Origin: Octopus vulgaris
Taxonomy: Eukaryota
Length of the DNA: 64,000 bases
Direction: 5' to 3'
Assembly (NCBI GenBank): GCA_951406725.2
Contig: OX597814.1
Location: forward strand, 182,032,001 to 182,096,000
The notes below the pieces were generated by a model that was not told the origin of the DNA, did not search any database, and saw only the letters and a program-made list of their open reading frames with translations. Shown here in pieces: positions 3,103-56,698 of the stretch. Both the position numbers and the translations under genes were made by a program. Each line of letters opens with the position of its first letter. Within the stretch, counting starts at the first letter, position 1.

Positions 3103-5140
3103 CTGATTAGAATTAAGGAAAAATACTTTAGTTGTATCACCTTTTAGAAACATTTTAACAACTCATTAAATACTGCTATTAAACCTAAGGTAGCAAATCC
3201 TTAATTTGCTTCAAAATACTGAATTATACTGAAAGAAAACACATTATAGTAGGTCCTTTATTATTTTGAATAAACTCAAAGTATGTCTTGTTTTGTCATT
3301 ATCAGTAATGATTTTTAAGGACTGACTGTCTTTTGGCTTGGCTAGAAAAGGAAAGGTTGTGTCCGTGCTCTTTCATGGCCTCCTTGACTGATGGGAGAAA
3401 GTTATCTTCAAACCAAAGACTTGATCTGATTGTTTAGATTTGAGTGGGCTCTGTCCAAGGTACCCAAGGGTTTAGGTAGTGTTAAATTGAGTAACTGATT
3501 AAATTCCTCCCCACCCCCACCAAGAACAGATATGGTCTCTTTGACAGGCTTCCACATAATTTTCAACCACAAAATTTCATGACCCAAAACTATGTTAGAA
3601 GATATCTGCTCAAGGTGCTGCAGTGGAATTAAAACCCAAAACCATGAGGTTGTGAAGTGAACCCAGTCATTCTGTTGCAATTTTACATTACTGTAAAATT
3701 TAAGCATATATTCATCTACTTTGCCTGCAGCCCAAGCGAAAAAAAACACCACTTTCCTTTCTTCCCCACTCAAGGCACAGAATCTTAGATACTTTACTTC
3801 TTATGACAACTGAACTTAGTAAGTACTTCTACAATATCTGTTATAATTATTTTGGATTCAGCTAGGGGAAATGATTGCAGAAACAGAAAGAAGTTATATA
3901 AAACAGTGGGGAAATATAATGCAGTTTAAGAATGTTGAAGATTCAAACTAGACATTATCCTGATCATGATAATTTATATGATTTTTGTATGCTGCCATAG
4001 TTAGAGAGAGTTGCTGAATAGGATCTCTTCTGTGAGAGACATTGTTTTCAGGTCTGTCTCTTCCTATGTTTTTAATGGTCTGCTCGTACCACTTAATTTC
4101 TATAATAACACTTCAAGTATGTTTGATGCCTGGTCACATTCTTAGCTCATTTGTACCTGAACTGATCATAGTCACACAGTCAACTTGTTCTGCTTTAGAT
4201 ACTGTAGATCCAGTACATTAACTGCACATAAGTTGGACTACTGCCTTATGTGTGGTATTTGCTCTGATTGTGCTCTGAGTTTGAATAGAGCTGAGGTCAG
4301 CGTTGTCTTTTATTCTTTTAGAGTCAACAAAAAAAAAGTACCTATCCAGAACACTAGTTTAGTGGAACTGTTAAAGCATCAGGTAGGATGGCTTGTGTTG
4401 TCTGTCTAGGCCTTTGTCTACTGACAATAAAGTGTGCAATTATACTGGTGCCAAGCAGTATTGTCTTTAAAGTGGCAGCTTTTCCCTTGGATAATATCAG
4501 TGGTATGGAGAGGGGAAATTTGCATGTATGGTTAACTGCCATACTTCCCCCAAAAAATTTGCTCTTGTATCCTCAGATATGAGGATACAGGTGCAGATAT
4601 ATGCCCAATCCTGAAAGACAGGCCTTAGATATACACATACTTCTCAAAGGTTTCACAAGGAGAGCAGAAAGGTTCATTTTCAGCAAAGATAATAGTTTTC
4701 AAAATGCCTTCTAGCTCCTTCTCTAACTCATCATCGTTTAATGTTCGCTTTCCATGCTAGCATGGGTTGGACGGTTCGACTGGGGTCTGGGAAGCCAAGA
4801 GGCTGCACCAGGCCCAGTCTGATCTGGCAGTGTTTCTACAGCTGGATGCCCTTCCTAACGCCAACCACTAACTCAAGGACAATATGACATGACCAGCTCC
4901 ATCTAAGTATGTCATCTATATAACAGGCTTCCATTAAACTAGCACTGCAGTCTATAGCTCCTTGTATCATGTTAATCATGTTGCTAGTTACTTTAATACA
5001 TCTGGTGTACTCACACTCAGTTTTTCTGTCAGTCTAACCAAACAGTATTTGTTAATCCTCTGAACTCCCTTCCTGCATACAACATAGAATTATGAATCAA
5101 ACCACAACAGTATAATGGCCAAGAGCCCATGAAAGGATAC
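3103..5140 (-). other. NAPG: U12-type (minor spliceosome) GT-AG intron of NAPG
   Basis: The 5' splice site GTATCCTTT is a perfect U12 consensus. Branch site TTCCTTAAT lies at 3112-3120, about 11 nt from the AG, with no polypyrimidine tract between them. Confidence 0.9.
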
Positions 5141-5225
5141 GCATTTGTCTGAGCTTGAAGTTCTGCAGCTTTTAAATATGCATTCTTTGCTAGATCATAA
5201 GCTTTGCAAGTTCTGAAGCAAACAG
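5141..5225 (-). CDS. NAPG: gamma-SNAP coding exon 3 (85 nt)
   Basis: AACAG|...|GTATCCTTTC. Encodes AVCFRTCKAYDLAKNAYLKAAELQAQTNA, in frame with exons 2 and 4. Confidence 0.93.
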
Positions 5226-6709: not shown

Positions 6710-6777
6710 CAGCTTTTGAATATTCTTCAATTGCCACATCTAAGTCAGGTTTCCATTTAAATAATGATGTCTTCTGA
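6710..6777 (-). CDS. NAPG: gamma-SNAP coding exon 2 (68 nt)
   Basis: TTTCAG|...|GTAATC. Encodes (S)QKTSLFKWKPDLDVAIEEYSKA with the gamma-SNAP KWKPD signature. Confidence 0.95.
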
Positions 6778-21452: not shown

Positions 21453-21582
21453 GAAACATCTCTGCTATCATTTGTGTTCAAAAGTAAAACGAAATATGAA
21501 CACTAGTGAAGTGGCTGCTGCACTCCGTCCTTTCTATTTTGCTGTTCACCCCGACATGTTTGGACAATATCCTAAAGAAAGG
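21453..21582 (+). CDS. TCAIM: TCAIM (T-cell activation inhibitor, mitochondrial; DUF4460) coding exon 2
   Basis: TTCTTCAG|...|GTAAGA. Encodes ...EVAAALRPFYFAVHPDMFGQYPKER, near-identical to the human signature ALRPFYFAVHPDFFGQHPVER (J-domain-like HPD). Confidence 0.95.
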
Positions 21583-33719: not shown

Positions 33720-33846
33720 TCTACCAATGAAGACTCACTAAAGAAACTAAATGAATATGTTTCATCTCTGCATACACTTGGTTATGCTCGTCCAACGAAA
33801 GTTAAGTTCTACTTGAAGATTACAGATGATAATGAAGGGTCTCCAG
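33720..33846 (+). CDS. TCAIM: TCAIM coding exon 3
   Basis: TTTCCACAG|...|GTAGGT. Encodes STNEDSLKKLNEYVSSLHTLGYARPTKVKFYLK..., matching human INENSLKRLSVYLENL...PTQLTFYVR. Phase 0 start fits exon 2. Confidence 0.92.
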
Positions 33847-34882: not shown

Positions 34883-37800
34883 TTGCCGGTGACAAGTAAG
34901 CGAACCATTCGATCGTGGCCGTTGCCAGCGCCACCCCCGACTGGCCTCCGTGCCGGTGGCACGTAAAAAGCACCATCCGATCGTGGTCGTTGCCAGCCTC
35001 GCCTGGCCCCCGTGCTGGTGGCACGTAAAAAGCACTATCTGTCCGTGGCCGTTTGCCAGCCCCGTCTGGCACCTGTGCGGGTGGCACGTAAAAAGCACCC
35101 ACTACACTCACGGAGTGGTTGGCATTAGGAAGGGCATCCAGCTGTAGAAACACTGCCAGATCAGACTGGGCCTGATGCAGCCTTCTGGCTTCCCAGACCC
35201 CAGTTGAACCGTCCAACCCATGCTAGCATGGAAAGCGGACGCTAAATGATGATGATGATGATGATCTTGGCCTTTTAAACTATAATTTATAATGTTCCAA
35301 TATGCTGCAGTATTTTACATTATGAATTATACTCATATTTCATAATTTAATGTCTGTTTTCCATGCTGACATGGGTTGGATGACTTGACAGGAGCTGATA
35401 AGGCCAGAGTCTGCACCAGGTTCCACAGTCAGTTTTTGGCTTGGTTTTTGCAGCTGGATGCCCTTCATAATGCCAACCACTTTACATAGTGTATTGGGTG
35501 CTTTTTATGTGGCACCAGCATCAGTGCTTTTTATGTGGCACCAACACCAATGCTTTTTGCATGGGAAATGGTTATAAAATATAAACAAACAAGTAACAAA
35601 AAGACTTATGGATAAAATTAATTTCGTTGCAAAAAAATAACTATAAAAAGAAGTATCTGGTCATCTACCTTTCTCCTTACTTTTTCTTACAAACCTCAAT
35701 TTCTTTCACAACCTTTCAACAATTACCATTTCCTTAAAGAACTGGCTTCATCTGGAATATCAGAACTCATTTCTTCTCACAGGCATGGCTGCATGGTAAG
35801 AAGTTTGCTTCCAAACCACATGTTTGCAGGTTCAGTCCCTTAGTGTGGGACTTTGGGCAAGTGTTTTTTACTATAGCCTTGAGCTGACCAAAGCCTTGTG
35901 AGTGGATTTGGTAAATGGAAACTAAAAGAAGCCTTCTGTATTTGTGTGTGCATGCATGTGTGTGTGTGTGTGCTTGTGTCTGACTCCCCACTGCTGGATA
36001 ACCAGTTTTGGTCTGTTTATGTACCTATAACTTAATGGCTTTGGTAAAAGAGACTGCTGATAGAATAAGTACCAGACTTTAAAAAAATAAATACTGGTGT
36101 TGATTTGTTTAACTAAATCTCTTCAGGGCATGGCCCAGCATGGCCACAGTCCAATGACTGAAATGAATTACAAATAAAAGATAACTATTTTTCTACCCAC
36201 GTAAGTCATAATTCATTTCCTTGGACTTTAATTTTTACCTTTATTGTCGTTTCTTTTTATTTACCATTTCTTTTTTTATTGTTACCGTTTCTTTTTCATT
36301 ACTTGTTAAATAGATTGTGGTTAAATACATAACGGTAATGAAAAGCAACTAAATATTTAATATTTAATTAAATTTAATAATTTAATACAGCTGGAATTAT
36401 TTCATTTCTTAAATAATAAGTGAAGAAATTTAACCCTTTAGCATTCAGATTACTCTATCAAATATAATGCTTGTTCATTCACAATCGAAATCAAATTCGA
36501 TGACTGGCATCCGTGCTAGTGGAGTGCTGAGAGCACCATCTGAGTGTGATCGTTGCCAGAGCAGCAGTGTTCACTATGTGAACACTGCTAAAGGTACCCA
36601 AGGTACCAGGCAGCAAGTTAAGTATTCCACCCAGTAGACCATGGCAAGATTTGAACTCAAAACTCTAAAAACTTGAATAGAAATTGCAAGGCATCAGGTT
36701 TAGTACTCTCTGCAGTTCCACCAATTCTCTGCCTTGGATTGTTAGTTCTTTTTATTGCTTCTGAAAAGGTGAAAGGCCAATTTACTACAAGCTCCATTCC
36801 TTGCTGTGGTTTAATGGCTGTGTACATTAATGACGCTGTGAATTATGCTAGTGGTGTGCAAATTCTTGATAGGGCCTCCCATACTGGACAGGTCAATGGA
36901 TGAAGTTCAGACTAATATGGACCACCTCTTCCTACAGATAAAAATGGGTTTGTATAGAGTCAACACCCCTACCTAGAAAAAAAGCAACATTACAGAAGCA
37001 TTGATGACAACTCAAAACAAATAAGACCTGGAAGAGGAAGGCCTTCTTTTAGGGCTTAAGACCCACCCACAAAGAAGCAGAAGAGAGGATGCCCTAAAAA
37101 TAGTTGAAGGCAGGATACTGAGGTAGTGTTAAAAATGCAAGGATCCAACTGGTGAAAAAGAAAAGACAGCCCTGAGTTGAGAACTGTAGAAAAAAATTGC
37201 CTGACATGTCAAGCTAAGTACAAGTGTGGTTGCTCTTGCATACAGGCTTGCAACCCTTGCAGCCCTCTCCAGCTAAGCATCCCTAATCTCGTGGGCTTGT
37301 AAGTGCTGGTGCCACATAAAAAGCATCCATGCTGGTGCTGCATAAAAGCATTCAGTAGACTCTGTAAAGTGGTTGGCATTAGGAAGGGCATCCAACCATA
37401 GAAACAATACCAAAACAGACATGGAGCCTGAACAGCTCAACTGGTCAGCTCCTGTCAAACCGCCCAACCCATGCCAGCATGGAAAACATATGTTAAATGA
37501 TGATGATGATGATGGTCTATGCTCCATGGGGAGTGAAAGGTTTACATATGTCAGTAAATAAGCATTGTATGCAATGGTCTATTGATTCTGGCTTCTGATG
37601 AGTGAAATTTGATTTTACTATTAAACAGAACCAAATTGGCAAGCTGGCAGAATTGTTAGAGTATCAGAAAAAATTCCGTAGCAGTGTTTCTTCTGACTCT
37701 TTGCATTCTGAATTAAAACATTTCTGAGGTCAACTTTGCCTTTCTTTCCTCTGAAGTAAATAAAGTAGCAGTCAAATATTGGGATTGAAATATTACTGTG

Positions 37801-50212: not shown

Positions 50213-50294
<82 letters not shown>

Positions 50295-50769
50295 AGTCAG
50301 GTTTCTTTAGTTTTATTCACAAGGTGTTATTGGTGAAGCATCGGCAATAATAAAAGTATTTTGCCCAATGTGCCCCGCACAGCAAAATTGAACCCCGAAT
50401 CACGCTGCGAAGCGAACTTGATAACATATCTTTTAAAAGAAATAAAATAATCCAAAACCGAAAATGTTTAAATTAATGCTTGTATGAAAGCCTGTATATA
50501 TATATATATGAATATATATATATATACAGGCTTTTAAATATATATATATATGAATGTATATGTATGTATATGTACACGCGCACACTCATGTATGTGTAAA
50601 TATTAAATAACTTTCATATGATCGTTTTAAAGAATGTGCGAAAAAAAAAAAGTATAAGTTTTCATAGCTAAATTTGTTTATTTAGAATTCACTCCATCCA
50701 TCCATCCCCCACCTTCGTGCGAATTTAGACGAACTTTATATATTTGCACTTTAAGAGCTCTATTACTTT

Positions 50770-50915
50770 GTTTCCTTTTGTTACACGTCAGAGCTCGTCT
50801 CTTTTAAATGGTCGGTCCTCGGCTGTTAGTTTCAACAGAGTTATGCCCCTTCTTGAAATAATTTACCCTACCTTTCACTTCCATTACTAAACAATCAAAC
50901 AAAATGGCGCAATAG
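50770..50915 (+). promoter_or_regulatory. Putative promoter of the intronless gene
   Basis: CRE half-site CACGTCA (50784-50790) and YY1-type CAAAATGGCG (50900-50909) in CpG-retaining sequence. Confidence 0.55.
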
Positions 50916-51057
50916 TTCCAGACTAGAGCTTTTCAGCACCTGCTTTTATTTTTGCCTAGCTCGTATATTTATAGACATTTGTATTAGTTTTTGTTCCACC
51001 AAATCCCAGCTACAGATAGCTACATCAACAACATATATAGGTGCGGGGTTTCCTGCC

Positions 51058-51945
51058 ATGCCAAAGAAGAAAAAGAAAATGAGTTACGAAAGACGTCGAA
51101 GACAAGACAGAAGTCGCAAGAGATTATTTCGTGGTTCACAGTCTGATTTATCTCCAATGAACGGTAATCATGGTAATTATGTTTCAAAAGCTTATGCTAT
51201 TAATGAATTTAATTTTGAGGATTTGGATCGAATGATTATGTTTATTACGGAATCGAAACAAATTCAGGGTCGCTACTACGTTCGTTATCTTCCAGGCATG
51301 CTTAATTCCGCTGGAGAATTGACTCCATGTAATTATAGACCCGTTTTCAGCTTTACTTCTACTGCTGCTTCATCTGATTATAACTTTATCCAAAATAATG
51401 ATTACAGCGATGGTTCCCCTGAAGTTGTTGACCTAACTGACAGCGACGGTGTTTCGTCGGAAAACAGCAATCCTGCATCGCCAACTTCACCTTCAACTGT
51501 TGACGAAACTCAAGAGAAACATATTGAAGTTGAAGGTTCAGAAAATGGTGAACCCGGTGAAAAAAAAGATTCGAAAAGTGAAACACCGGGAGCAGAAAAG
51601 GCGAACGTATCTAAATCGATACCAGGGTTTTTATCAACGATAAACAGGAAACAAACCGCACGGAAAAGTATGCGGCAACAAACTGAATCTTTGTCTTGCG
51701 GAACTGAAAACAGTGCATCTCCGGCGATGGACATGGAAACGGAAAGTTCGTCCGTTTCTGCTTCTAATTCCGATTCAGTAAATACCAATAATAATATTCG
51801 AAGTAAAAGTACCAGTAGTTCTATCAACAAAAATAACCTTGTAGCTAACTCCTCGCTAACTAGCAACTGTAAGACTAAGCTACCATCTGATAAGTGGGAC
51901 ATTTTGGATGGAATAACAGTGACTATGAATCCGGATTTTCGATGA
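51058..51945 (+). CDS. Intronless 295-aa putative nuclear protein, largely disordered, with NLS, SIM and H3-tail mimic
   Basis: Longest ORF in the window and not repeat-derived. Kozak-like CCTGCCATG start, upstream YY1 motif, and a UTR-like AT-rich tail with AATAAA. Confidence 0.8.
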   Translation: MPKKKKKMSYERRRRQDRSRKRLFRGSQSDLSPMNGNHGNYVSKAYAINEFNFEDLDRMIMFITESKQIQGRYYVRYLPGMLNSAGELTPCNYRPVFSFTSTAASSDYNFIQNNDYSDGSPEVVDLTDSDGVSSENSNPASPTSPSTVDETQEKHIEVEGSENGEPGEKKDSKSETPGAEKANVSKSIPGFLSTINRKQTARKSMRQQTESLSCGTENSASPAMDMETESSSVSASNSDSVNTNNNIRSKSTSSSINKNNLVANSSLTSNCKTKLPSDKWDILDGITVTMNPDFR

Positions 51946-53143
51946 CCTAACGTTGTTCCCTCTTGTACAAAGAAAGAAAAAAAAAAAGATACAAAACAAA
52001 ACAAAAAAAAAAGACAAAAAAAAAAATTTAATCATGTAAACTTTTACCAATTCGTAGCATATACATTAATTTCATGAATTCATTCATTCAAAGCGAATTT
52101 CTCGTTTCTACTCATGAATTTTCCAACATGGCTGCCTGATTGATAATTGATTACAGGTATCTATTGAATGGATTAGTCACTTTAACTGGAAATTAGTGAG
52201 TGTGCAAATTATATTCTAGTTTTGTTCGGCCAAATTTTTTGGTATCTATTGCTACATTAGGACTCCTGCACTGATGTCACGTGTTTCAGCAGCCATATTG
52301 AGACGATTTTAGCTGGCTGAACTAATTTAGTCACAGGCACTGCTGCATTTAAAGTTCCGATTTTCATCTGATAATGTGTTCATTTTTATCCTCCTTCTCT
52401 ATAAATATTGAAACAAAACAAAACAAAAAAAAAACAAACAAACATTTTTTTTTTTTTCGAGAAATATCCTCAACATATATATATTTTATTTTCTATTGTA
52501 AAGAAAATGGGAAATGTTCCGAAGATGAACCTAAATAATCTACATTTTTTGGACAGGATACTCTGAGTCGGCTAAACTTAAATGACAAAAGAAAAAAAAA
52601 TTTATTCGAGAAAGGCGGGTTTACTATGTTTATACATATGTATATGTGTTTCATATATATTTATAGATATATAAAAACCTGTTGATGTTCCTTCAGCTTG
52701 TGTTCAAAACAAAAATGCTGTGTGTCTATTTACGTCTCACTTAGCTTTAATATTTCTTCTTTTTTCCTATTTGCCCCCCCCCCATCTTCTCCCTCCCTTT
52801 CTCGTTTTAAAAGGTAATATTTAATTAATCATTATTTAATACTTGGAAACCTTTACTCTAAGACTGTAAACCTTCTTGTGGTTATTGCTTTGACTTACTT
52901 TTAAGATCTGACTGATACTTTCAACAAACAAACAATTTGAAAGGAAGCAATTTTTTTATATATGAAAAATACATGTAGAAAAAGCAAGCCACTCAATTTC
53001 ATAAAAGGTTCATAATCATATGACTGCCATGCTGACTTGATTTATATTTTATTCAGTACCTTAAAATGTATATCATCTTGATAAACTTTTTTTGTCTCCC
53101 TTCTTTATAAAACTTCATTTTTTCTCTTCATTTCAAGTTAAAA

Positions 53144-53190
53144 AATAAATCTTAGTTGTGAGAATGTTGACCTTTTTGTACCTTTATTTA
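53144..53190 (+). terminator. Candidate polyadenylation signal of the intronless gene
   Basis: AATAAA at 53144-53149 followed by GT/T-rich downstream sequence. Confidence 0.4.
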
Positions 53191-55699
53191 AAAAAAAAAA
53201 TTAACGATTGAAAAATATTTTTAAAATGTGCTCTCAAGACTTCAATATTTACATACACAGACACACACAAAAAAATTACTGTTGGTGTTGTTTTTAGTTG
53301 TAGAAAAACGTTTGAATAAGTATTTTGAGGAGATATTTACATTTGCAGAAAAATGAATGGCTAGTCGTATGTGCTTGATATAAGTGTTTATGGATTATAT
53401 ATACAGCATTAGATATATAGAACATTGAAGTTTTAAGTAAGTCGTATTTATGAATCATATCATAACGTCTTCTGGTGATATTATTTAATATACAAAATGG
53501 TTTAAAAGCAAGTGTTTATAATTTAAACTAAACTATTTTTAAAATACTGCTCCCAGATCTGGATTCATTGTTCTTTGTTTACATATTTTGGCTTTCATCA
53601 AATAGCTGTTATACGATCTTGTTTTATATATGCAATAGTTTATTTGTAACATTTTGACATATTTGTTCTGGAGAGTACAATACTTTGATTTCCAAATATA
53701 TAGGATAGATACATTATTTAATGTTCGTTTGCATAGGAAGTGGGTTTTTTTTAAGGTTTTCACGATAACATTTTTTGATTCAATTTTTTAAAAATATTTG
53801 TTGACAACAGTTGTGTTGGGAGTTGTGGATATTAATTAATGGAATTGCCCGTGAACGAATTTAAATTTCTATTTTGTTGCAAATTAATTGCATTAAAGAA
53901 AGTTGTTGACATTGCTTGGCGTATCAGAGATTTTTTCTTTCTAATAGCTTAACCACCGACATTGGTCTTTGTATTATATACAATCTGAATAAGTCTCTCT
54001 CTTTGCTCTAATTTTTTTCTTTCTCTTCGTCCTTTTTTTTTTTTTTTTTTTCTTACAAATTAAGGTTATATTTGTTGCATTTAAGTTGTTTTGCCATTAA
54101 AAACTGACTCGCTGATTTATAGCTAAACTAATATTTTAATTGTTGGTCAATTCTATTGTCAGCATGGAGGCTGCTGATTAAATAATCATTATTTTTTCAA
54201 GTCGTGGCTATCCCGTCTTGCGAAAGGAAGAACACTGCAATTGGGACGTTCTTATTTAGCAACTATCGCAATAGCAACCGATCTGTTTCCCATTTATATC
54301 ATTGTATACACTATTATTTTTTGTGCAGAAGCTTACTTATTGACAACAACCTAGTTTCTTCAAGAAATCATGCTAATTTCATTGTATCGTTTTATTATAT
54401 TCAAAAGAAAAAAATTATTACTTCGTCCTATGAAGAAAGGCATTGTTCATTATCGCCTGTACTGAAACGGGTTGGGCTGTCTGGACAAATTGAGTGCATT
54501 TAATTCTTCGACTGAGTTGAGTGTGGGAGGGCGGTGTGGCTATGGTACGGGAAAGATACTTGTTTGAGTAGGAGGAGGCGTATAAAATGCATGTTCAGTG
54601 GCAGTTGTAGGAAAAGCAGTAACGGTTTATAGTGGGAGGACACAGCTCAACAACTGGCTGGTGATAGCTTATTAGGTTCATATTGGCCCTGATCGAGCAC
54701 ACCTATGAGCTCTTTCAGTCGTGATCAGTGTGTCCTTTTTTTTTTTCCATCCAGGATCGCGTTATTTTAATGTGTTTCATGTGCTTTGTGGGCGGTATGG
54801 TAGCATTCAATGGAAATTTGTGGCTGTTCTTTCTAGCCGGTCGGCCGATCGTTGCCATGTCAAGTTTTTTTTTTTTCTCCTTTGTCGTATTTCATTGACA
54901 GGTTGTTGGTAAAGTAATTCCAGTCGTGGAAACAATATTCGGTGTTGTATATTTTTAGTTCAGGAATGACAGAGATATTGGCTTTTGAACAGAGATCACT
55001 CGAAATACGTCCAAGCGATTTTGAGTGTAGTTAATAAAGCTAATTGTTTATTTTATCATGACATAACAAGAAAGCTTAGCGCTTATGTCCGATTTGCGGG
55101 ATCTTTTGCCTCTGGTAAACCAAAACACTGATGCAGTTACATTGCCAAATATATTTAAGGATTTTTACAGTTGCCCGCTAAGTTAGGTCTAGTAGTGTTG
55201 TAATAGTTAATCAGTTGTTATTACTTCTATTTAACTTGGATATGTTTGTGATTGTTTTGGAGTTTTGTCAGTTAGGTTTATTGAAATTTTAGATTATTGT
55301 CAATGGAAAAAAAAAAAAAGAATTAAATATTAGATTAAAATAAATGTAAGCAGAAGAAACCGTAGCTAATCGAGCTTCGATAGTAGAACCAAAACAGTAG
55401 CAGCTAGTGTGATAGTGGCCGAAGAATGCGTTTAACCAATTCTTTCAAGCCTACATAATATCTTTCTAAATATTAGCCGTCGTAGTTTGCGATAAGCAGT
55501 TGCTATTATTTACTTTATGAATTTAACATTGCAAAAACACGACAGATGCTTAAAATTTATATTATAAATACTTATACTAATGAGAAGTACTTTGTGTCAA
55601 AAACAGCAGAATTTTTCCTGATGAAATGTGTGTGTATGTATTTATGTGTGCGTGTATATATATATATATGCGTGCGTGTATATATATGTATATAATGTG

Positions 55700-56150
55700 C
55701 GTGTATAAATATGTATATAATGTCTGTTTATATATGTATATCACGTGACCGATCAGACCATCAGATGTTGCTACACATCGCTGGTCACAATGCGCTTCGC
55801 ATTGTTTTAGCCTTCGAATGACGCCACCCCGCTGGCTAAGCGAGCAGGCCATATATGTATATAATGTCTGTTTATATATGTATATAATGTCTGTTTATAT
55901 ATGTATATAATGTCTGTTTATATATGTATATAATGTCTGTTTATATATGTATATAATGTATGTATATATATGTATATAATGTCTGTGTGTATATATGTGT
56001 AATAATGTCTGTGTGTATATATGTGTAATAATGTCTGTATATATGTATATAATGTCTGTATATATATATATATATATGTATGTAATGTCTGTATATATAT
56101 GTTTGAATAAATATATATATATATGTATATAATGTGTATATGTATATAAA
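55700..56150. repeat. ~22-bp AT-rich minisatellite with a 110-bp GC-rich insert
   Basis: Unit TATATATGTATATAATGTCTGTT is repeated and degenerates to the right. Insert at 55741-55850. Confidence 0.85.
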
Positions 56151-56698
56151 TGGAGATTATTGGTTGTAAAGGGTCTTCTGAAATAAGTTAATTCTAAGTG
56201 CTAAGTACAGCACATGTACATTCATTGCTGATGAAGTCATAATTTTGTAAAGTTAAATTAGATTTTTGAACCCTTTAGCAGTTAGATTACTTTGTCAAAT
56301 GTAATGCTTATTTATTCACATTGTTTTGCATTAATCATGCAATTTTGTAGCTTTAGGATTTCAATGATGCGATTGTTTTCAGAATGACATTGCAGAGCAG
56401 ATGTAAGAGACCAGATCTGGTCAAAAAGGTAGAATATTTGGGTTGGATGTGACGGGGTTAAATGCTAAAGGGTTAATAACTATCAGTCTTTTGCAAGAAC
56501 CAGAAAAAGCGAATCTCTCTATCAAAACGTCTGTATAATTTCAAGTAGGATTAACAGTTTATACTATTCTTTAGCCAGCCAATTTCAAGACTATAGAAGG
56601 CAATATCACCCAACATTAATTTTGAAAGACATGTTGTTATGACCCTTCTGTCCGGCCTTTGCCGTGATAGATTGCTAGCCAGTACACATTCTTTATTT

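Follow-up and report, generated by a model that had tools for sequence, protein, structure and literature searches.

The open reading frame (ORF) analysed here is genuine and uninterrupted and has a single copy in the window, by which we mean the whole 64,000-nucleotide stretch of Octopus vulgaris DNA. Judged by sequence comparison, its product belongs to a real and constrained protein family that is undescribed. By analogy with known chromatin regulators, we give a probability of about one half to the reading that this product is a mostly disordered nuclear adaptor, in which chromodomains would recognise a methylated K203 and binding to SUMO would provide the tether. The original prediction, made from this one sequence, had placed an intronless orphan gene here and proposed a lineage-specific SUMO/heterochromatin adaptor assembled from short linear motifs. 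Its coordinates are right, as the translation gives 295 aa plus a stop, and all the motifs it named are located in that translation (Table 1). The ORF is enclosed by a stop-free frame of 362 codons, whereas 100 base shuffles of the window gave stop-free frames of 222 codons at most. A second ATG lies at 51079, and a start there would give a protein of 288 aa. The region 50701-55600 occurs once within the 64-kb window.

Table 1. Features of the orphan gene and its protein, in positions of the window; invariant residues are counted in three divergent sequences.
Feature	Positions	Strand	Remarks
Orphan ORF	51058-51945	+	295 aa + stop, single frame
PKKKKK, presumed NLS-like	51061-51078	+	shared with P0002 and P0005; lacking in P0003 and P0004
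Basic N-terminal block, aa 8-22	51079-51123	+	invariant 9/15
Family core, aa 42-99	51181-51354	+	invariant 46/58; without match to a known fold
SIMb-type motif VVDLT, then acidic residues	51418-51447	+	aa 121-127 invariant 6/7
H3 K4-S10 mimic KQTARKS, then MR	51649-51675	+	invariant 9/9
Hydrophobic C-terminal motif, aa 279-294	51892-51942	+	invariant 12/16
Putative unspliced transcript, ~2.25 kb	50907-53150	+ (inferred from ORF)	X1/X11 contigs; AATAAA at 53144
Presumed YY1/Pho-like word	50901-50909	+	at putative 5' end; only copy of the word in the window
A-rich tract	51963-52026	+	directly after stop; possible retroposition scar

A word-based protein search found three relatives (P0002, P0003 and P0004) among 1,378 candidates. 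The same three were returned by phmmer over 1.84 billion representatives, where all of them are family members, by a search with a profile of the full alignment, and by a profile of the core run against proteins of 115-2000 aa. P0002 is 97% identical to the window protein (P0001), and P0003 and P0004 are 370 and 362 aa long; the latter two may be orthologs from other cephalopods or else paralogs. The P0002 cluster includes the UniRef entry A0A0L8HZE9 (P0005), an 'Uncharacterized protein' of Octopus bimaculoides that differs from the window protein at 6 of 295 residues. It is an ortholog by sequence, and its entry carries no attached function. Because the searched libraries are incomplete for animal genes, the absence of the family elsewhere is provisional. 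The earlier statement that no protein family could be recognised holds in these libraries, with the ORF now part of a small family rather than a singleton. A literature search found no description of the family among the papers listed, and a term look-up in PMC13652810 gave no mention of the protein; gene tables in the supplements of genome and single-cell studies on cephalopods might list it.

The relatives show which parts of the protein are constrained. Five islands keep their order in P0003 and P0004, namely the basic block, a 58-aa core, VVDLT, KQTARKSMR and the C-terminal motif. The linkers between them are rich in Ser, Asn, Thr and Asp, vary in length and align poorly. Invariant residues make up 82 of 105 island positions but 20 of 183 linker positions in the three divergent sequences, a contrast that is partly circular because the block borders were drawn after viewing the alignment. 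The ten differences to P0002 and the six to P0005 fall on 12 distinct positions, none of them inside a block; by hand arithmetic, this outcome has a chance of ~0.005 if differences are evenly spread. The mimic and the two residues after it (KQTARKSMR) are fully invariant although the surrounding linkers drift, and acidic residues follow VVDLT in 3/3 divergent proteins. In addition, the sole coding difference seen in a DNA-like read run is synonymous. The five motifs that had been picked out from a single sequence are thus exactly the parts conserved in two distant relatives. Two further features of the original prediction did not survive as conserved ones. P0003 and P0004, whose first residue corresponds to Met8 (the ATG at 51079), lack the SV40-like NLS PKKKKK, and none of the S/T-P sites, seven in the window protein, lies among the invariant alignment columns. 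The proposed adaptor loses these two elements and retains its conserved motifs; neither a characterised ortholog nor a transposable-element (TE) ORF was found, and the constraint is clear.

The H3 mimic, for which the original prediction gave no position, is formed by residues 198-204 of the protein (51649-51669). They are identical at 7/7 positions to histone H3 K4-S10, the H3 sequence being that of the peptide list in the accessible part of bioRxiv 10.1101/2024.11.04.621823. K203 is the equivalent of H3 K9 and S204 that of S10. In 200,000 composition shuffles, KQTARKS never occurred (analytic expectation 1.3e-6) and VVDLT occurred at a frequency of 8.5e-5, each figure being for that named word alone and uncorrected for the range of other motifs that could have caught the eye. 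The SUMO-interacting motif (SIM) is contained in EVVDLTDSD (51421-51447). It has the V/I-V/I-D-L-T core and the acidic flank of a SIMb motif, lies outside folded domains, and is without predicted secondary structure in the full-length AlphaFold2 model. The N-terminal part contains an Arg-rich stretch (51088-51123), and the basic block at aa 8-22 is likely to serve nuclear or nucleolar targeting. PKKKKK, ahead of it, we take to be NLS-like.

The closest known parallel is found in ATF7IP. According to the available portion of PMC6172828, G9a/GLP trimethylates this protein at K16, within ARKTMR, the MPP8 chromodomain binds the modified site, and transgenes are not silenced efficiently without it. 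SIM cores include VDLT in RNF4 and VIDLT in PIAS1 and bind more tightly with acidic flanks, and MCAF-1 (ATF7IP) is listed among the tight binders of SUMO, as stated in the sections of PMC3901395 at hand. Like ATF7IP in these excerpts, the octopus protein unites an H3K9-like site with a SIM-type motif in a single chain that is probably nuclear and largely disordered. Where ATF7IP has ARKTMR, the octopus family shows ARKSMR, and both carry MR at the +2 and +3 positions, where H3 has TG. The parallel drawn in the original prediction, which compared the pairing of SIM and H3K9 mimic with ATF7IP-type cofactors, is closer than was claimed in the methyl site and in the tight SUMO binding of MCAF-1, yet the protein is not an ATF7IP. 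It has a longer H3 match (K4-S10) and only 295 aa, and its mimic is internal and follows the SIM, whereas that of ATF7IP is at the N-terminus. The FNIII domain of ATF7IP/MCAF1/Windei, whose role in ATF7IP is described in the accessible text of PMC7706265, has no Pfam match at E<=10 in P0001, P0003 or P0004. No homology to ATF7IP, its SETDB1-binding region included, was found, the only matches among 1.84 billion representatives being the three family members. In addition, no convincing match to the ATF7IP-binding FAM motif (ITEFSL-like) was seen by eye. The lack of FNIII and of homology, together with the different motif order, rules out membership in ATF7IP, and the resemblance is at most one of motif logic.

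Other mimic and SIM systems share single elements with the octopus protein. Endogenous histone mimicry is an already known kind (PMC11703355, in the part available). WIZ, LIG1 and automethylated G9a share an ARK-type site open to methylation and reader binding (PMC6172828, same portion), but there the mimics are appendages on enzymes or zinc-finger proteins, whereas the octopus protein has no known domain. PIAS1 and RNF4 share the VVDLT-type core with acidic residues after it, as far as the excerpt of PMC3901395 goes. Unlike them, the octopus protein has one SIM and no RING or SP-RING domain was found in it, so by sequence it is not an E3 ligase. The H3TMs are likewise non-histone proteins that copy the H3 tail, but in the accessible text of PMC8166343 they need the mimic at a free N-terminus for K4-reading PHD fingers. 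The octopus mimic is K9-centred and internal at aa 198-204, which rules out H3TM membership. JC virus Agno is as small as one might call the octopus protein and likewise has an H3K9-like motif, which in Agno targets HP1 (bioRxiv 10.1101/2024.11.04.621823, same part); it is viral, its mimic is much looser, and no sequence relation to the octopus protein was found.

From the ATF7IP-like candidate methyl site and the SIM core with its acidic residues, we infer a nuclear adaptor. In the proposed mechanism, the basic block would direct nuclear import, enzymes of the G9a/GLP type would methylate K203, and chromodomains of the HP1/CDYL/MPP8 type would bind the methylated residue. VVDLT would tether the protein to SUMOylated chromatin proteins. 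In H3, the S10 position acts as a methyl/phospho switch, and S204 might, by analogy, do the same. The core and the C-terminal motif could be docking sites for further partners. Overall, the protein would assist in nucleating or stabilising H3K9-type silencing at sites marked by SUMO. Counting against this mechanism, no FNIII or SETDB1-binding module that would give access to a methyltransferase was detected.

The motifs of the octopus protein would suit a decoy or a DNA-repair role just as well. The main rival to the adaptor is an endogenous histone decoy or anti-silencer, whose free copy of H3 K4-S10 would sequester H3K9 writers, erasers or readers at SUMO-rich sites and lower silencing there. 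No DNA-binding or catalytic domain is recognisable in the protein, and its mimic is longer than the 4-5-residue ARKS/ARKT mimics in the accessible parts of the cited work, where JC virus Agno offers a precedent by engaging HP1 through an H3K9-like motif (bioRxiv 10.1101/2024.11.04.621823). However, the K9 position is a lysine and not a methionine, so the mimic is no K-to-M poison, and the MR that follows ARKS is shared with ATF7IP, which promotes silencing in the available portion of PMC6172828. We consider the decoy rather unlikely. A role as replication or DNA-damage adaptor is less likely still. Here a UHRF1-type tandem Tudor domain would read the methylated mimic, as in LIG1, or the KS would be ADP-ribosylated, while the SIM would recruit the protein to SUMOylated repair foci. 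The K4-equivalent is conserved in the octopus family, and a two-site Tudor reader would use it. LIG1 K126 is a G9a/GLP-methylated H3K9 mimic (PMC6172828, portion as above). Against this, the protein has no PCNA-binding or repair domain that we could see, and reader preference is beyond what a sequence can tell.

The endogenous H3K9 mimics known from mammals are carried by enzymes or large cofactors. If the adaptor reading is true, this small, constrained protein of narrow taxonomic range, with a perfect seven-residue H3 copy and a SIM, would be a rare chromatin regulator built mainly of short motifs that has converged on the ATF7IP methyl site (ARK-S/T-MR). Its mimic is unusually long among endogenous H3K9 mimics and is combined with a SIM. 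A bolder version, which we put forward as doubtful, is that cephalopods possess a stand-alone 'portable H3K9 tail': a protein without known domains but with a new beta-hairpin module, which would present K4-S10 at SUMO-marked chromatin and seed or drain HP1-type silencing without a nucleosome, as a lineage-specific layer convergent on ATF7IP motif logic. Heterochromatin control in cephalopods is little studied, and our literature search found no paper that combines cephalopods, heterochromatin, H3K9 and SUMO. If the protein is a generic nuclear scaffold, its interest is modest.

The core is the largest conserved part and might define a different function. No Pfam family was accepted for P0001, P0003 and P0004 or for separate segments of the protein. 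There is no histone match in Pfam or PDB, which speaks against a histone H3 variant. AlphaFold2, on shallow alignments, gave a mean pLDDT of 42.3 for the full length, with little structure predicted outside the core, and of 59.7 for the core, modelled as one short helix plus a beta-hairpin and one further strand. The beta-hairpin core and the disorder elsewhere are low-confidence predictions. The C-terminus of the model is unfolded except for a short helix, and prediction of a core homodimer scored 0.00 in both runs. Foldseek, proposed earlier as a check, and VIA-align gave no match between the core and a characterised fold, with 0 matches at E<=0.001 in PDB and in BFVD and 0 at Z>=2 among 48,161 chains. 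The best Foldseek rows (PC4, E 0.44) were dismissed, and among PDB sequences the matches to uL6, alpha-amylase and lysyl-tRNA ligase (E 0.0039, a sum across four short stretches) were put down to chance. The ESM Atlas held no usable match for the whole protein or the core. One of 79 stretches passed a metagenome scan, a 17-residue match in the gut contig L001 that was dismissed. A 26-aa piece with the mimic had 0 matches among PDB sequences in a search too weak for short motifs, and C-terminal pieces of 21 and 30 aa, short queries with little power, had no Pfam or meaningful PDB match.

These searches bear on the reading of the protein as a strongly diverged Polycomb/CBX- or HP1-like paralog, with the core as a decayed chromo-type domain and the C-terminal motif as a RING1-binding hairpin. 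By eye, the core resembles a chromodomain and the C-terminus what we take to be the C-box/RYBP pattern, and the core is predicted to form a beta-hairpin and a third strand. To compare the core with chromodomains, a profile was built from five of six loci (L002-L006), L007 being left out as it does not continue as a chromodomain; two of the five segments were confirmed as Pfam Chromo. With this five-sequence profile the three cores did not outscore shuffled sequences (126, 154 and 140 of 500 shuffles reached as high a score), and hhalign gave a probability of 0.03. In addition, no chromo, chromoshadow, Tudor-knot, CBX7_C or YAF2_RYBP match was found in Pfam at E<=10, and no chromodomain-type match occurred in PDB sequences or among the fold matches listed. 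On the profile, Pfam, PDB and fold results, with a core model that is weak, we reject a chromodomain identity of the core. The C-terminal likeness to the Polycomb C-box/RYBP hairpin stays as a weak lead, and a Polycomb- or HP1-like ancestry is improbable. The five profile loci are IMG/VR viral contigs encoding canonical-looking chromodomains, one of them labelled a giant-virus MAG, and served for the control profile only.

Assembled read data give a first view of the gene's structure. Contigs from 4 of 20 read runs were aligned to the window: X1, X11 and X16, which are small, and X19, which is large and DNA-like. X1 and X11 come from two studies, and their RNA status is a guess only. A single X1 contig covers 50909-52071, and with it the whole ORF, without a joint, skipping an A-rich repeat. 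The gene was rightly called intronless, and no joints are listed for any of the four runs. The X1 and X11 contigs run from 50909 and 50907 to 53100 and 53116, respectively, at a depth of a few hundred. Their 5' stops lie within 2 bases of each other, with an adapter-like loose end in X1 and none listed in X11. X19 extends upstream to 50589 at a depth of ~32, and X16 contributes short repeat-like pieces only, none over the ORF. Over 50290-50823 and 53494-54739, where X19 gives partial cover, neither X1 nor X11 has any; these gaps are not counted as evidence because a filter drops records. The X1/X11 cover of the gene is a weak hint of transcription. CpG observed/expected is 1.1-1.2 over the gene (undepleted) vs 0.38 for the window.

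The annotated O. bimaculoides protein has 62 additional N-terminal residues relative to the window protein. The first 47 of them match window positions 37421-37552 (+), a stretch for which blastn finds 18 further matches in the window. The extended N-terminus is probably a false, repeat-derived first exon and thus a gene-model artefact; it may alternatively represent a minor spliced form. That the annotated model borrows such an exon speaks for a non-functional gene or chance motifs, but the ordered, island-wise conservation, the 362-codon open frame and the contig cover speak against it, and this reading is already largely refuted and very improbable.

The gene could also derive from a transposon or a virus, by capture or domestication, and have retained chromatin-mimic motifs. 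It has no intron, an A-rich tract after the stop and a narrow distribution, and viral H3 mimics are known (bioRxiv 10.1101/2024.11.04.621823, accessible part). On the other side, the protein has no TE domain in Pfam, the gene is single-copy in the window, terminal repeats were not found there, and no target-site duplication was found around the A-rich tract, where just one A-rich 8-mer was seen. No viral relatives turned up among 54 candidate viral-contig stretches, phage records and BFVD folds at E<=0.001. A retroposition origin is possible, and we give domestication of a mobile or viral gene only a small chance.

The flanking DNA holds several minor features. The words at 50901, 52125 and 52299 are presumably YY1/Pho-like. 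Those at 52125 (+) and 52299 (-) face each other in the putative 3' UTR and are the sole two of that form in the window. X1 contigs differ from the window by A>G at 52297 and C>T at 52929, also in the putative 3' UTR; both are absent from X11 and may reflect an allele or RNA editing. Rfam gave 0 matches over 50300-56500. Further downstream, 54000-55600 is a second CpG-undepleted (observed/expected 0.94), non-repetitive stretch with AATAAA at 55339. Low-depth contig pieces lie at 54889-55173 and are not joined to the gene's contigs. This stretch is possibly a long 3' UTR, an enhancer or a promoter.

Two other genes were seen in the window. A DUF4460 gene, which we presume to be TCAIM-like, has coding exons at 21453-21582 and 33720-33846 (+), matching Pfam positions 2-33 and 35-71. 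Scans up to the window end found no third DUF4460 exon, so the orphan gene may be nested in an intron of this gene, on the same strand. SNAP/TPR-like candidate exons lie at 1361-1501, 5081-5225 and 6710-6777 (-); the first has a weak Pfam SNAP match (E 0.064) and the other two have none. This gene, which we take to be probably gamma-SNAP, and the DUF4460 gene are arranged head to head, with a CpG-rich stretch at ~19-23 kb between them.
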